Shown here one piece after another: positions 3,796 to 33,045 of a stretch of 64,000 nt of DNA. The notes below the pieces were generated by a model, which had not been told where the DNA came from, ran no database searches, and saw only the letters and a program-made list of their open reading frames with translations. Position numbers and translations under genes: made by a program. Positions within the stretch are counted from its first letter, which is position 1. Each line of letters begins with the position of its first letter. The stretch lies in the sequence record PP400778. The stretch is one strand, 5' to 3'. Origin of the DNA: Escherichia phage FL15.

Positions 3796-4472
3796 CTATT
3801 TGTTTCGGCTTTTAATTGAGATATTTCTTTACACTCTTTAACTACTTTAACAAATAATGCTCTTGCTTTTGCGGCGTCAATAACAAGTAGTTTCTTGTAC
3901 GCCTTCATTTTAACACTATAAGTTTGCCAAATCAAGTCTTTGGCTACCTTGTCGTGTTCGTCGATTATATTTAGAAAGCTATCTAACAACATAAACGACT
4001 CAAACGATATAATCCGATTTTGCAGTAGTTTAAAGATACCGCTAGTTTCGGTTGCGGGATTATATGTAATTAGCTCTTTAAGAGTAACCCCGCGTTTCTC
4101 TGAGAAGTATACAAGACTTTTAATGTCATCGTCAAATCGTGTTGCCGCATCAGTGATTTTACCGATGTACTCCATGTAAAACCCGTATGCGTCAACATCG
4201 GTGATTTCACCTACCCATGCATCGGTATTAGCTACCAGATTGCTTAGGAATAGGAAGTATAATTCTCTTAGATTGTACTTTTCCGCTAATTTTGCGAAAT
4301 AATACTTATCTCTGCGTTTATTGAATGCGGCATCAGACAACCGCATCCTCCAATTGTATTTTACGCAATCATAACGCCCGTTCATATGAGCTTTCATCAT
4401 GCAATATAACATATACACAGATTTAGCATTAATTCGCATATCTGGATCTGGAGGAAGACGGTTTCTGATCAT
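3792..4472 (-). CDS. 59: helicase-loading protein gp59
   Basis: 226 aa; matches T4 gp59 (GKSVY, HMNGRYD, KYNW.MR.SDAA, NLVAN.DAW, ISFE.F.LLDSFLNIID). Confidence 0.9.
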   Translation of the reverse strand: MIRNRLPPDPDMRINAKSVYMLYCMMKAHMNGRYDCVKYNWRMRLSDAAFNKRRDKYYFAKLAEKYNLRELYFLFLSNLVANTDAWVGEITDVDAYGFYMEYIGKITDAATRFDDDIKSLVYFSEKRGVTLKELITYNPATETSGIFKLLQNRIISFESFMLLDSFLNIIDEHDKVAKDLIWQTYSVKMKAYKKLLVIDAAKARALFVKVVKECKEISQLKAETNS

Positions 4473-4481
4473 ACATACCCC

Positions 4482-4736
4482 TTAAATATCGAGAGTGTTG
4501 GTCGGTTCGTCGATCACTCCCTTCCTGAGCGTTCTATTTACTATACATTCTTGTGTGATCTTGTCAATAATGGACACCGGAATATATTTCTGATAGTGAC
4601 CATATTCTATAGAGTTTTCCTCTACAAACTGAGTTGTCGCTTCAAGATAAGTCAATCCCTCTTCAACAACCAGTTTTTCGATTGCAAGACCGTTTGCTGT
4701 TTTATTCGCGGCTTTTACCGCATGTTCATTAAGCAT
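4482..4736 (-). CDS. 33: late transcription co-activator gp33
   Basis: Matches T4 gp33 (IEK.V.E.G.TYLEATT.F.EENSI, C-terminal NTLD); exact start ambiguous. Confidence 0.75.
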   Translation of the reverse strand: MLNEHAVKAANKTANGLAIEKLVVEEGLTYLEATTQFVEENSIEYGHYQKYIPVSIIDKITQECIVNRTLRKGVIDEPTNTLDI

Positions 4737-5004
4737 TGAACACCCGATCATAGAGTTCTACTGCTTCATCGCGTTCTGCTTCGAAGGTTTCGCGCTGTTG
4801 CTGGTGATACAGTTTAAACAGAATGCCCCACATTTTACCATCTACGCCTAATTCTTCTTTAGCACGCTGTTTGATCTCTTTGATCTTATCGCCGTATGCT
4901 TCTTGAATGGTTTTCTGATCGCTGGCTTCTTTAATCAGTTGTGCCAGGGTATTTCCGTGTACATTTTCGTCAAATACTACTTTTTCTTTTTTCTGTTCAG
5001 TCAT
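4729..5004 (-). CDS. dsbA: double-stranded DNA-binding protein DsbA
   Basis: 91 aa; matches T4 DsbA (FIKEASD, AKEELGVDGKM, VELYD.VF). Confidence 0.85.
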   Translation of the reverse strand: MTEQKKEKVVFDENVHGNTLAQLIKEASDQKTIQEAYGDKIKEIKQRAKEELGVDGKMWGILFKLYHQQQRETFEAERDEAVELYDRVFNA

Positions 5005-6565: not shown

Positions 6566-6751
6566 TTAAGTTCTCTCCACTCTCACAACAACATATTCGC
6601 CAAACGAGTTAGATACTTCACGATCATACCCGTACTTCTCCATAACTCGCAGAATTGCATTGTTTAGTTCTGCGCGAAAATAATTATAATCCTTATCAGG
6701 TATTCTGTCAACTATCCATTTTGCACCGTCTGACAAATCAACTTTAACCAT
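6566..6751 (-). CDS. hypothetical small protein
   Basis: 61-aa ORF with AAGAGGA SD, packed between the HNH gene and rnh. Confidence 0.55.
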   Translation of the reverse strand: MVKVDLSDGAKWIVDRIPDKDYNYFRAELNNAILRVMEKYGYDREVSNSFGEYVVVRVERT

Positions 6752-6757
6752 AATATA

Positions 6758-7321
6758 TCATCCTCTTTTTGGAAAATTTAAATAAGCATACTCGCCAACT
6801 ATTTCATGTGCTGCACGGTCATAAGCCTTAGCCGCCTCAACTTCTGTCTCAAAGTATCCTAGATGTATATTCTTTCGATTGATAACAATATACGCCTTCC
6901 ACGGCTTTTTCTTGCTTGGTGATAATGATACACCTTTATATTTGCTATGGCAAGCCTTTTTCTTTGAGACGTTAAACTGATTTTGCTGTTCGGTTGCTTC
7001 TCTCATGTTTGACGGTCTATTGTTAGTTTTGTCTTGGTCTATGTGATCTATTCGTTCAACCTGAGTACCATACTCTAAAAACCAGACAACTCTATGTACA
7101 AACAGATTAAGTTTATGACCATTGTTGTAAAATGTAAAGTATAAATATCCTTCTTTATGGAGACATACCCTTACCACATCACCTTTTTTGTATATGGACC
7201 CTTCTTTTCGGAATCCAGCAGCTACAGAATCCTTTAAATGGTATAATATTCCATCGACATGATAGAATCTACCTTTTATCGCTTTCTGTGTCTCGATATC
7301 CCAAAATTTTGTTTTTGCCAC
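6758..7321 (-). CDS. free-standing HNH homing endonuclease with AP2 DNA-binding domain
   Basis: HNH motif (HRVVWFLEYG...IDHID.DK.NNRPSNMREAT) and AP2-like YKGVS...WKAYI...HLGYFETEVEAAKAYD; likely GTG start with GAGGTG SD; paralog at 30558-31121. Confidence 0.8.
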   Translation of the reverse strand: MAKTKFWDIETQKAIKGRFYHVDGILYHLKDSVAAGFRKEGSIYKKGDVVRVCLHKEGYLYFTFYNNGHKLNLFVHRVVWFLEYGTQVERIDHIDQDKTNNRPSNMREATEQQNQFNVSKKKACHSKYKGVSLSPSKKKPWKAYIVINRKNIHLGYFETEVEAAKAYDRAAHEIVGEYAYLNFPKRG

Positions 7322-29660: not shown

Positions 29661-29918
29661 TTAATTAAAATCTTCTTTGTCCATCTCTGCGTAGATTACA
29701 TCCCACGCCCATAAATCAATAAACGAATTATATGTCACGGTGCAATCGTTGTCAATCACTTCTTTCGCATATTTCTTGATGTTTTCGTAGGCAACTTGCG
29801 GATCAATTTTGTGTTTACGAAGGTGTGCATATTCATACCTCAAACATTTCATAAACAGGTCCATCGATTTCTTTTCTCGATGACACTTGGCGATCAGAAA
29901 ATCAAAACTTCGACTCAT
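29661..29918 (-). CDS. hypothetical protein (rIIA.1 position)
   Basis: 85-aa ORF with AAGGAG SD. Confidence 0.5.
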   Translation of the reverse strand: MSRSFDFLIAKCHREKKSMDLFMKCLRYEYAHLRKHKIDPQVAYENIKKYAKEVIDNDCTVTYNSFIDLWAWDVIYAEMDKEDFN

Positions 29919-30123: not shown

Positions 30124-30155
30124 TTTGATTCTCCTAAGTGGTATCTCGTTTCGAT

Positions 30156-30191
30156 GGGGACATTATGATATATCCCCGATCCAGTGTCAAC
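30156..30191 (-). promoter_or_regulatory. early promoter cassette with palindrome (PeSL-like)
   Basis: Minus strand TTGACA (30185-30190), 17-nt spacer, CATAAT; palindrome GGGGATATATCATAATGTCCCC encloses the -10. Confidence 0.5.
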
Positions 30192-30199
30192 AACTTTTT

Positions 30200-30499
30200 T
30201 TAATCTTTTTTCAGTGCGTCCATTACTCGCTCTGCGATCAGTTCTCGTAAGCACTGATAACCATGATATTTGATGGCAATGTCACGCAGATCATTAACCA
30301 GTTCCCGTACTTCATGGTCTTTCAGATCGTCTCTGTATTTCGATTTAATCGTATCTTTAGGTGGATTGCGGATAACCTGAAAACCTTGTTCTGCAATCAC
30401 TGCGGCTTCTCGCTGGCGTTCATGCTGTACTGTATTTTTGATCAGGTCTACTTCCATGAACTTTGTCATACTCATCATCATGTTATTCTTTTTGATCAT
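30200..30499 (-). CDS. hypothetical protein
   Basis: 99-aa ORF with GAGGA SD. Confidence 0.5.
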   Translation of the reverse strand: MIKKNNMMMSMTKFMEVDLIKNTVQHERQREAAVIAEQGFQVIRNPPKDTIKSKYRDDLKDHEVRELVNDLRDIAIKYHGYQCLRELIAERVMDALKKD

Positions 30500-30533
30500 T
30501 ATTCAATCCTCATAAAAGAAAAGGGAGACTCCC

Positions 30534-30561
30534 ATTATAGAGAATCTCCCTTGTATGTCAA
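30534..30561 (-). promoter_or_regulatory. sigma70-type early promoter (TTGACA-16-TATAAT)
   Basis: Minus strand TTGACA (30556-30561) and TATAAT (30534-30539) with GGGAGA...TCTCCC inverted repeats around the -10. Confidence 0.5.
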
Positions 30562-31121
30562 CTAAAATTTAAAGATGCAAACTCCCCGTGATGAATTTTT
30601 GCATATTCATCATATGCTCTAGCGGCTTCCTCCTGAGTAGCAAACGATCCTATGTATTTTCTGTATCCGTTTATCCTTATTTGTGCTTGCCACGGTCTTT
30701 TGCTAGATCCTTTGCGATGAGTAACACCATTATATATGCTCGTGCACCCGTCCATTTTCTTTTTATTGTACATGTTTTGTTGTTGTGTTGCCTCCCGTAA
30801 ATTTGGTGGATTGTTGTTTTCTGGATTCCCGTCTATGTGGTCTATTACCTTAACCTGTGTTCCATATTCAAGAAACCAGACAATTCTATGTACAAGATAT
30901 GTAGATGTTCTCTTTTTAACCTTATTGTAAACATCTATTGCCAAATGACCGTAATTTAACTTTTTTGTTTTTACTTTATCACCGACTCGGTAGAAATATC
31001 CCTCTGGTAGACCATTAAAAGACGGACTATTTGTTTTGTGATATAGAACACCTTCCGTGTGTTCAAATCTGCGTTTTAATTCCTCTTGAATTTCAGTATT
31101 CCAAAATTTCGCACTTTTCAT
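30558..31121 (-). CDS. free-standing HNH homing endonuclease with AP2 domain (paralog of 6758-7321)
   Basis: 187 aa; LVHRIVWFLEYGTQVKVIDHIDGNPENNNPPNLREATQQQN and YNGVTH...WQAQIRINGYRKYIGSFATQEEAARAYD; begins 1 nt after the gp39 stop. Confidence 0.8.
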   Translation of the reverse strand: MKSAKFWNTEIQEELKRRFEHTEGVLYHKTNSPSFNGLPEGYFYRVGDKVKTKKLNYGHLAIDVYNKVKKRTSTYLVHRIVWFLEYGTQVKVIDHIDGNPENNNPPNLREATQQQNMYNKKKMDGCTSIYNGVTHRKGSSKRPWQAQIRINGYRKYIGSFATQEEAARAYDEYAKIHHGEFASLNFS

Positions 31122-31122
31122 A

Positions 31123-32946
31123 TTATGACGCCATCCATGCCTTCCTCATGTCTGAATCTTCACTATAGAGCAAATCGAATAGCTCTTTATAGTTTTCCGG
31201 TAACGTGATGATTTCCATTACAGGATCGTTGATCACGCGATGATAATCTGATTCTGTAAGCGATGCTAACCCTTTGATATATCGAATGCTATAACCTTTG
31301 ATATTATCTCGGTCGTTCTCAAAATCTTCTAGGTCATAATACCATCGAACATCATCACCTTTCTTTGGTTCCGCAATGATAATAGGTGTTTTGATAAACC
31401 GGATTCGTCCATATTCGAACAATTCAGGCCAACGAGCAAAGAAAGAGATCAGACTAGGTTTAATAGACCCGATCCCGTCAGTATCAGCGTCGGTCATAAT
31501 CGCAATATTTTTGTATTGCATAACTTCCAATGCATCAACACCAAATTGCAAGCCTGTGATCGCCATGATGTTAAAAATTTCGGCGTTCTTAACGATCTTT
31601 GCCTCCGGTTGTTCCCACGTTGTAAGAGTTTTGCCTCGCAACGGGAAACCTCCATGTAAATCTTGATCACGTACAGAGATCAGATAGTTGATCGCGGAAT
31701 CACCTTCCGTCAAAAACAGGGTAGTTTCTGCGTCAGTTCCAATAAGGTTAGCTTTAACGTGTTTTGCCACCTTAGCCCGTTTCGCTGCCTTTGCTGCCTT
31801 AGTCGCTGCCGCTTTATCTGCTGCCTCTTTGCGTGCCAGGACTACAGCAATAATAGGCATGATAATGTTTTCTTTCTTCGCAATGACTTTAGCCAGCTTT
31901 TTAAAATCCAGATCAATGTGTCGCTTGATATCACCAGTTGGGTTAGTCAAGCGTTCTTTTGTTTGTGAATCAAAACGAAGGTTTGGCAATTCACGAACAA
32001 TAAGAATACAGGTCAATCCAGACTTAACCGCAGCTTTAGTAACATCAACCTTATATTCTTTCTTGATTCGTTTTACAATCTCTTCACAAAGATCATCTGT
32101 CACGTAGTCTACGTGTGTTCCCCCGTTTTTGGTAAACAGACCATTAGCAAAGGATACTGATTTAAAACCTTCTCCCTCGACCGCAGGAACTAGGGCAAGT
32201 GAAAAGTTTTTATCTTCAATGACAAACGGATTATCATTGTATAGTTTAGCATAATCCTTGAACTTACTAACAATACGTTTACCATTAAACTTAAACGTGA
32301 TCTTAGGAAATATTACGCTCAATGATTGCAGACGATCATGAACAATATCTAAAACAGAGTTGTCCATCATATAACCTTCGAAGTGGTCGAAGTCTGGGCA
32401 AAATGTAACCTTTGTTCCCTTCAATTTTGATGGTTTCGATGACCATGTGATATTTTCAGCACCGTTTGTACATTGAACGGTCATTTCTGTTTCGCCGTCA
32501 CAGGTCACACCAGTAAACCAATCGCTAAAGAAATTTGATAACGACGACCCAACACCGTTCATCCCTTGCGTTAATCGATTGGTATCATCAAAGTTAGACC
32601 CTGCTTTTGTTCGTGTCCATGCGGCTACAGGTTGCGGAATCTGCGTACCCTCTGGGGTAGTAACCATATGTTGAGGAATACCGCGACCATTGTCTGTTAC
32701 CGTAACAATATTGTTTTGGATATCGACGCTAATCACATTGGCAAATTCAAAATTAGTGCGAATCGCCTCGTCTACAGAGTTGTCGATGATCTCATCAATG
32801 ATTTTAACCAGTCCAGGAACGTATGAAATTTTTGTCCACTTACCGAACAGGAAACGTTGATGTTCTTCGTAAGTTGTTGATCCTATATACATTCCTGCAC
32901 GCTTAAGGACATGCTCACGATCAGATAAAATGCGAAACTCACTCAT
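31123..32946 (-). CDS. 39: DNA topoisomerase II large subunit, fused gp39+gp60 form
   Basis: 607 aa; GyrB-like ATPase (SDREHV.KRAGMYIGS, IDEIIDNSVDE, DNGRGIP) through TOPRIM (LFLTEGDSA, IMTDADTDG) to the gp60-like C-terminus (WPELFE.GRIRF.KTP, IRYIKGL) in one uninterrupted ORF. Confidence 0.9.
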   Translation of the reverse strand: MSEFRILSDREHVLKRAGMYIGSTTYEEHQRFLFGKWTKISYVPGLVKIIDEIIDNSVDEAIRTNFEFANVISVDIQNNIVTVTDNGRGIPQHMVTTPEGTQIPQPVAAWTRTKAGSNFDDTNRLTQGMNGVGSSLSNFFSDWFTGVTCDGETEMTVQCTNGAENITWSSKPSKLKGTKVTFCPDFDHFEGYMMDNSVLDIVHDRLQSLSVIFPKITFKFNGKRIVSKFKDYAKLYNDNPFVIEDKNFSLALVPAVEGEGFKSVSFANGLFTKNGGTHVDYVTDDLCEEIVKRIKKEYKVDVTKAAVKSGLTCILIVRELPNLRFDSQTKERLTNPTGDIKRHIDLDFKKLAKVIAKKENIIMPIIAVVLARKEAADKAAATKAAKAAKRAKVAKHVKANLIGTDAETTLFLTEGDSAINYLISVRDQDLHGGFPLRGKTLTTWEQPEAKIVKNAEIFNIMAITGLQFGVDALEVMQYKNIAIMTDADTDGIGSIKPSLISFFARWPELFEYGRIRFIKTPIIIAEPKKGDDVRWYYDLEDFENDRDNIKGYSIRYIKGLASLTESDYHRVINDPVMEIITLPENYKELFDLLYSEDSDMRKAWMAS

Positions 32947-33045
32947 TATTAAACCTCTTCATAACATAACCATAACTTACTGCAACCGCCACAAAGACGG
33001 CTGCAACAATCATATTAAAAATTGAGTGATTGTCAAGTATATGAC

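Follow-up and report, generated by a model that had tools for sequence, protein, structure and literature searches.

Directly behind the gene for the large subunit of DNA topoisomerase II (gene 39), Escherichia phage FL15 carries an ORF that we read as a free-standing, promoter-less HNH-AP2 ("HNN-AP2") homing endonuclease gene, active now or until recently. We give this reading a probability of roughly 70%, on the strength of sequence comparisons and of a predicted protein structure. The feature is real and ordinary, with a very economical insertion geometry: the endonuclease gene begins one nucleotide after the gene 39 stop codon and ends within the −35 hexamer of the promoter that follows. 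All coordinates below refer to the window, that is, the whole 64,000-nt stretch of sequence record PP400778 that we analyzed, and the features are collected in Table 1.

Table 1. Features of the endonuclease locus and of the related gene elsewhere in the window
Feature	Coordinates	Strand	Details
HNH-AP2 endonuclease ORF	30558..31121	minus	187 aa; ATG start, TGA stop
HNH_3 (I-HmuI-type, "HNN") nuclease motif	30768..30899	minus	residues 75-118; Pfam E 6.3e-14, above cut-off
C-terminal AP2/ERF-type DNA-binding domain	30564..30743	minus	residues 127-186
TAA-T-ATG junction (gene 39 stop, one base, endonuclease start)	31119..31125	minus	sequence
Recoded gene 39 3′ tail (last 10 codons and stop)	31123..31155	minus	linked to the presence of the endonuclease gene
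Fused gene 60+39, topoisomerase II large subunit	31123..32946	minus	607 aa; PHROG E 3.5e-252
PeSL (promoter-early stem-loop)	30511..30561	minus	−35; −10 in hairpin loop; T-rich tail
Promoter-like site TTGACA-16-TATGAT with adjacent hairpin, 5′ of gene 39	32977..33036 (hexamer pair 33009-33036)	minus	
Other HNH-AP2 gene of the window	6761..7321	minus	45.7% identical; HNH_3 and AP2 both above Pfam cut-offs

The ORF encodes an HNH-AP2 protein with an I-HmuI-like core

The product of the ORF matches the PHROGs profile phrog_99, "HNH endonuclease" (E 5e-49). Its nuclease motif comprises D94-H95, N103, N107, R109 and N116/N119, and in a 32-sequence alignment of homologues D94, H95, N103, N107, R109 and N119 are invariant. 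At the C terminus, the Pfam AP2 profile aligns with residues 130-175 (E 1.4e-5) at 25.7 bits, under its gathering cut-off of 33.3 bits, and the complete domain matches plant AP2/ERF proteins among PDB sequences (WRI1, ERF096 and AtERF1; E 9e-6 to 3e-4). We built an AlphaFold2 model on the homologue alignment (mean pLDDT 93.1; pTM 0.83). Using Foldseek, the C-terminal domain of the model was superimposed on the AP2 domains of AtERF1 and TEM1 at 1.3-1.6 Å over 60-61 aligned columns with 36-43% identity, and the remainder of the model was matched to I-HmuI with a probability of 1.0. By these profile matches and the predicted fold, the HNH-AP2 architecture is solid.

I-HmuI, the nicking endonuclease of Bacillus phage SPO1 (PDB 1U3E), aligns through its residues 22-102 with residues 42-122 of the FL15 protein (E 4e-5, 21% identity). 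The alignable part comprises the N-terminal DNA-binding sheet and the HNH core, and D74/H75/N96 of I-HmuI fall on D94/H95/N116. The two differ in that I-HmuI is intron-encoded and its C-terminal part is not an AP2 domain, whereas the FL15 gene is free-standing and encodes one. The C-terminal DNA-binding part of I-HmuI is a helix-turn-helix. The FL15 gene shows the features that define the HNH-AP2 class, namely an HNH_3 motif with Asp-His and Asn, a C-terminal AP2 domain and the sporadic occurrence of a free-standing gene at a fixed site. A putative nuclease activity is supported by the conserved catalytic motif and by the fact that every copy is intact.

A related gene occupies an unrelated locus

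The sequence-only reading had called this ORF a second HNH-AP2 endonuclease; it has both domains, and the window indeed holds a paralog. The paralog lies at an unrelated locus, where it adjoins and faces the long tail fibre gene. Just upstream of it is a promoter-like CTGCCA-16-TATAAT with an extended TG, where no hairpin was scored, and the next gene comes directly after it. The paralog is sporadic as well: copies of 89-99.5% identity are present in only seven other Krischvirus phages (KFS-EC, pEJ01, PTE-Eco09, G37-3, ELT4, FL20 and PHB13), and it is absent from JSE and RB49. The GC contents of the endonuclease gene and of the paralog are 36.2% and 36.4%, and that of the window is 40.6%.

The endonuclease is probably read from the gene 39 message

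The positions first read from the sequence are exact at both ends of the gene. A single T (31122) separates the gene 39 TAA (31123-31125) from the endonuclease ATG (31119-31121), and this 1-nt gap is common to all loci compared that carry the homing endonuclease gene (HEG-plus loci). At the other end, the endonuclease TGA (30558-30560) falls within the −35 hexamer TTGACA (30556-30561). Homology between carrier and empty alleles restarts at the first T of this hexamer, so the TGA is supplied by the resident promoter. The topoisomerase gene itself is intact and fused, as had also been proposed. The PHROG "DNA topoisomerase II large subunit" covers the whole protein, and because the last 164 residues also match a gp60-type PHROG we take the protein to be a fused 60+39 product; the same gene carries the annotation "60+39" in phage Phi1.

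Gene 39 is the upstream member of the transcription unit to which the endonuclease belongs, and the promoter-like site at 33009-33036 likely drives the message for both. A promoter scan found no sigma-70-like site placed to drive the endonuclease alone. Nor is there a T4-type late promoter motif (TATAAATA) near the gene, the only two in the window lying elsewhere. Since the endonuclease gene has no promoter of its own and is inserted upstream of the gene 39 terminator, it must be read from the gene 39 message. We infer that its translation is coupled to that of gene 39 or proceeds by re-initiation at TAA-T-ATG. Several T4 endonuclease genes have a hairpin that masks the start codon or the ribosome-binding site; we found none here, the fold of this region being no better than that of shuffled sequences (z −0.37). 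Seven free-standing endonuclease genes of T4 are promoter-less cassettes that depend on upstream promoters, and several of them are translationally coupled. The promoter-less cassette of FL15, read from upstream, matches these genes.

The gene was inserted in front of a resident PeSL

The promoter 3′ of the endonuclease matches the sigma-70 consensus at 12 of 12 positions, with TTGACA separated by a 16-nt spacer from TATAAT (30534-30539). This −10 hexamer is also the loop of a 13-bp hairpin (30521-30552) with a T-rich tail (30511-30520), which the sequence-only reading had missed. As RNA, the hairpin folds with −23.1 kcal/mol and beats all 200 shuffles (z −3.4). From its sequence, the element would end the transcript of gene 39 and the endonuclease and start transcription of the next ORF (30200-30499). 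PeSL elements were described and functionally tested in RB49 and phi1, where small ORFs are inserted and deleted through them (Arbiol et al. 2010, PMC2839356). The FL15 element is like those, a strong sigma-70 promoter with a stem-loop that overlaps the −10, located between a stop codon and the next Shine–Dalgarno and start. In phages that lack the endonuclease gene (HEG-minus phages) the same PeSL lies directly 3′ of gene 39, and in GEC-3S it is annotated as an overlapping promoter and terminator.

The endonuclease gene differs from a PeSL + ORFan module, which is an ORF between two PeSLs. Lacking its own PeSL, it relies on the resident one for its stop codon, its terminator and its promoter context. 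That single PeSL is downstream, the upstream boundary of the insertion is inside gene 39, and the nearest upstream PeSL-like site (32977-33036) is beyond gene 39. Because the gene lacks a PeSL on both sides, the published mini-circle route does not apply to it. A general attachment of HNH-AP2 genes to PeSLs was considered and dropped, as the paralog at 6761-7321 adjoins no such element.

Several other features of the surrounding early region are worth recording. Perfect or near-perfect TTGACA-N16/17-TATAAT sites form a series on the minus strand (29727-29755, 30162-30190, 30534-30561, 6683-6711 and 33009-33036), and between gene 39 and rIIA nearly all small early ORFs are preceded by such a promoter, in several cases with a hairpin beside it. 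At 30124-30199 the window phage and JSE lack the 64-aa ORF004 that RB49, Phi1, GEC-3S, W115, kvi and others have between ORF003 and ORF005. The indel varies independently of the endonuclease gene, adjoins the promoter-like site at 30162-30190 and is consistent with the PeSL-associated module shuffling of Arbiol et al. (2010). In the ORF downstream of the PeSL, codon 2 (30497-30499) is ATC (Ile) in the window and AGC or AGA in all compared phages, and the base before the Shine–Dalgarno-to-start spacer also differs (GATTGAATAATG vs GATTTAATAATG); both are minor private substitutions of the window phage.

The gene is polymorphic among Krischvirus phages

A 3.4-kb segment around the ORF has matches in 58 phage records, which all belong to Krischvirus (RB49-like T4-type coliphages), JSE being the best match at 98.5%. 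We classified these records using a 91-nt probe across the RB49 gene 39/PeSL junction, which is intact in 50 and split by the gene in eight. The eight represent seven phages and hold the gene always at the same position. The locus, which the sequence-only reading had proposed to compare across T4-like phages, is thus not invariant and shows a presence/absence polymorphism with a clean empty site in most records. By tblastn, the carriers are JSE (two records), W115, kvi, pEJ01, LF73P4, G37-3 and G5211, at 98.9-100% amino acid identity, and the next matches are at most 49% identical and lie at other loci. No homologue with an identity between 51% and 99%, which might have pointed to the donor lineage, was found in IMG/VR or in a set of 5.8 billion proteins. 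Public assemblies contain the identical protein in 34 indexed blocks, and in 10 of the 10 contigs listed it follows gene 39 after 1 nt. In IMG/VR, a collection poor in Krischvirus contigs, the HEG-plus junction had 0 matches and the empty-site junction had two.

The carriers form no clade: kvi, of the species Krischvirus RB49, has the gene, and RB49 itself does not. In its flanking segments the window is no nearer to carriers than to non-carriers. EpJSE_00005 of JSE and the corresponding genes of the other carriers are the same gene at the same site, and the window phage and JSE, which share the lack of ORF004, have different mosaic backgrounds. The copies are nearly identical and stand in otherwise unrelated backgrounds, including different species-level ones.

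The gene is already annotated "HNH endonuclease" in W115 and G5211. JSE has been credited with two HNH-AP2 HEGs (Petrov et al. 2010, Table 5, PMC2993671), in agreement with the two JSE loci found by tblastn, EpJSE_00005 being one of them. Given this tally and these annotations, the feature is already known: its class is recognized, and near-identical copies are in GenBank.

A recoded gene 39 tail is the only linked flank

The empty site, scar-free in most relatives, reads ...TCA TAA CAC TTGACA..., and the occupied site reads ...TCA TAA T ATG...(561 nt)...AG TTGACA.... The insertion is accompanied by a changed 3′ end of gene 39. Carriers have GAT TCA GAC ATG AGG AAG GCA TGG ATG GCG TCA TAA where the RB49-type allele has GAT GCA GAT CAR CGC AAA ATT TGG ATG CAA TCA TAA, with 13-14 differences in 30 nt, several of them synonymous. 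Compared with every HEG-minus allele examined, 11-14 of the 30 tail positions are changed in HEG-plus alleles. The stretch of the tail from 31150 to the stop codon is identical in 17 of 17 non-redundant HEG-plus alleles. Its outermost site (31155) is G, the non-carrier base, in two of the 17, which points to recombination right at the edge of the block. This recoded tail is a candidate immunity or target region, judged from sequence.

We measured linkage across a 4.4-kb span in the 17 non-redundant carriers and eight non-carriers. Most sites in 31120-31150 have r2 = 1 with the presence of the HEG, 31147 and 31150 being lower, and elsewhere in the span the mean r2 is 0.03-0.11 per 200-nt bin. 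No long co-conversion tracts were seen in this span: linkage stops ~30 nt upstream of the gene and immediately downstream of it. Krischvirus phages recombine freely, and so the missing tracts are uninformative either way.

Pairwise diversity among the 17 carrier copies is 0.31% in the gene and 1.9-2.6% in its flanks (the 5′ part of gene 39 computed excluding G37-3 and G5211), a difference of ~7-fold. All 17 copies are intact and 564 nt long. They vary at 10 sites, seven synonymous and three nonsynonymous, which are too few substitutions for a meaningful dN/dS. The fixed site, the scar-free empty allele, the young and intact gene with mainly synonymous variation, and the recoded tail as the only linked flank are textbook marks of a free-standing homing endonuclease gene, one that probably reached the Krischvirus gene pool recently and was carried by recombination into diverse backgrounds.

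The last ten codons of gene 39 (31126-31155) are a polymorphism hotspot among endonuclease-free phages too. At least four tail haplotypes occur in the empty alleles (ADQRKIWMQS, SDRRKIWMQS, SDRRKAWMQS and SDRRKEWMCS), with multi-base synonymous recoding of Arg and Ser codons. RB49 has the ADQRKIWMQS tail, and other tails are found in ECD7, JEP8 and Makalu. In a sample chosen for diversity, the mean pairwise divergence of these tails is 21%, compared with 4.5% in the preceding 144 nt. The C-terminal tail of gene 39 may be unconstrained, and the carrier tail may be a hitch-hiking allele that lay beside the original insertion. The variability may also represent target-site escape variants under selection. 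It is a tentative and rather doubtful proposal that the last ~30 nt are the recognition region and that selection on the nucleotide sequence, in a continuing arms race with the endonuclease, produced the tail haplotypes of empty alleles as escape variants; if this were true, the haplotypes would offer a natural allelic series in which to study DNA reading by an AP2 domain within a nuclease. As a weaker extension, HNH-AP2 enzymes might nick the GC-rich stems of PeSLs and so help to drive PeSL-mediated module shuffling.

A second element may have landed at the other end of gene 39

Immediately upstream of gene 39, G5211 has a gene for a 242-aa protein with an Endonuclease_7 domain (E 5.6e-16; 4031-4759, minus strand, of the G5211 segment). 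In both G5211 and G37-3 the 5′ third of gene 39 (aligned to 32339-32946) is only ~75% identical to that of all other Krischvirus phages, and the rest of the gene is 95-98% identical. We read this pattern as a possible second homing-type element, unrelated to the first, which left a long co-converted tract at this opposite end of gene 39.

Discussion

In the mechanism that we propose, the gene 39 early promoter would cotranscribe the endonuclease up to the hairpin terminator in front of which it was inserted, and termination-reinitiation at UAA-U-AUG would give a low level of translation. In a mixed infection, the AP2 domain and the N-terminal sheet of the protein would bind the empty Krischvirus allele. 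The protein would then make a strand-specific nick or a cut in that allele, close to where the gene 39 tail meets the −35 hexamer, as expected from the nickases I-HmuI, MobA and MobE. T4-type recombination-dependent repair would copy the donor allele, and the endonuclease gene would be transferred together with the recoded tail. The carrier allele would itself be immune because its half-sites lie 561 nt apart and its tail has been recoded. Indirect evidence for such cleavage comes from the complete linkage of the recoded tail to the gene, and the low diversity of the gene in different species-level backgrounds is compatible with a predicted over-representation among the progeny of mixed infections.

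A rival reading is a passive cassette, moved by ordinary homologous recombination between the conserved body of gene 39 and the conserved PeSL, with a nuclease that is inactive or uninvolved. The downstream boundary lies exactly at a PeSL, the kind of element that carries small ORFs in and out of RB49 and phi1 (PMC2839356), and the neighbouring ORF004 of RB49 is present or absent independently of the endonuclease gene. Linkage that decays within ~30 nt is expected in freely recombining phages, in which a neutral insertion would likewise lose its linkage to the flanks. However, two flanking PeSLs are not present, and the upstream boundary lies in the gene 39 coding sequence. The 7-fold lower diversity across carriers from several countries would need a driver or a very recent sweep, and the catalytic motif and the ORF are intact in all 17 copies, with mostly synonymous changes. 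For these reasons we consider a passive cassette unlikely.

The same intactness, with variation that is mainly synonymous, would suit a domesticated endonuclease, kept because it benefits the phage by excluding competing Krischvirus genomes at the topoisomerase locus, as the seg/mob genes of T4 partially exclude T2, or through regulation of the adjacent promoter/terminator by the AP2 domain; its homing history would then have no bearing today. The operon structure implies that the endonuclease is expressed early, together with an essential replication gene. A role of HEG nucleases in the partial exclusion of T2 by T4 has been proposed (PMC2993671), and AP2 domains derived from HEGs are reported to have become plant transcription factors (Magnani 2004). 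Yet only seven of about 50 distinct sequenced Krischvirus phages carry the gene, which argues against a strong general benefit. Exclusion is no real alternative, being a phenotype of an active homing enzyme, and the paralog adjoins no stem-loop promoter, so that a general link between AP2 and PeSLs is not seen. Domestication is improbable in our estimate. A gene ancestral to Krischvirus and precisely deleted in most lineages we regard as very improbable and disfavour. Loss of HEGs is common, and degenerate copies are known from Xanthomonas phages (PMC2248197), but no decayed copies were seen here. A gene of that age would be expected to match or exceed its flanks in diversity, whereas the diversity observed is 7-fold lower; the same scar-free empty site occurs in 50 records, on at least four tail haplotypes; and the carriers are not mutual closest relatives in their flanks.

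A homing endonuclease gene at this place recalls T4 mobA. As the sequence-only reading had stated, mobA of T4 lies between genes 39 and 60, in the order 39-mobA/60.1-60-rIIA.1-rIIA. MobA (Bonocora et al. 2011) is likewise free-standing, promoter-less, of the HNH superfamily and tied to the topoisomerase II large-subunit gene, which is listed as its target (PMC2988022). A recoded copy of the adjoining topoisomerase sequence is part of the MobA element, too (bioRxiv 10.1101/2022.08.31.505936). The comparison is nevertheless an analogy only, since the proteins are dissimilar and the insertion points differ. BLASTP found no similarity to T4 MobA (E 22), with a 48-aa N-terminal fragment of the T4 protein as the only reference. 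The mobA gene stands inside the ancestral reading frame, which it splits into 39 and 60 with a 50-nt bypass, whereas the FL15 gene follows the stop codon of the fused gene. Membership in the Mob type was considered and rejected for the lack of MobA similarity and because MobA has a classical HNH motif.

The nearer comparison is with the HNH-AP2 class itself, a putative HEG class listed for RB49, RB43 and RB16 (PMC1524935) and for JSE (PMC2993671). In Magnani et al. (2004), HNH-AP2 endonucleases are defined bioinformatically using RB49 among other phages, and a cysteine-free "HNN-AP2" type was described for Xanthomonas phages (PMC2248197). The HNH-AP2 proteins of RB49 (ORF040), RB16/RB43, Klebsiella Slopekvirus and Xp10/OP1/Xop411 have the same order of N-terminal sheet, HNH_3 without cysteine dyads, and AP2 domain. 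Their genes are also free-standing and sporadic, but the nearest are 42-51% identical to ours and the insertion sites differ; those of RB16 and Slopekvirus sit beside gene 46, not gene 39. In the literature that we found, phage HNH-AP2 enzymes have bioinformatic descriptions only, with cleavage data in none.

If the homing reading is true, little changes: FL15 is one more carrier of a gene that is in GenBank, and reviews of T4-like phages have included its putative homing endonuclease class since 2004-2010. The gene is useful mainly as a clean experimental system for the HNH-AP2 class, because the predicted target is narrowed to ~40 bp and natural alleles predicted to be resistant and susceptible are available in culturable coliphages, JSE and RB49, respectively. 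With the FL15 gene, T4 MobA and the endonuclease VII-type gene upstream of gene 39 in G5211, unrelated homing endonucleases would have landed repeatedly at the gene for the topoisomerase II large subunit.
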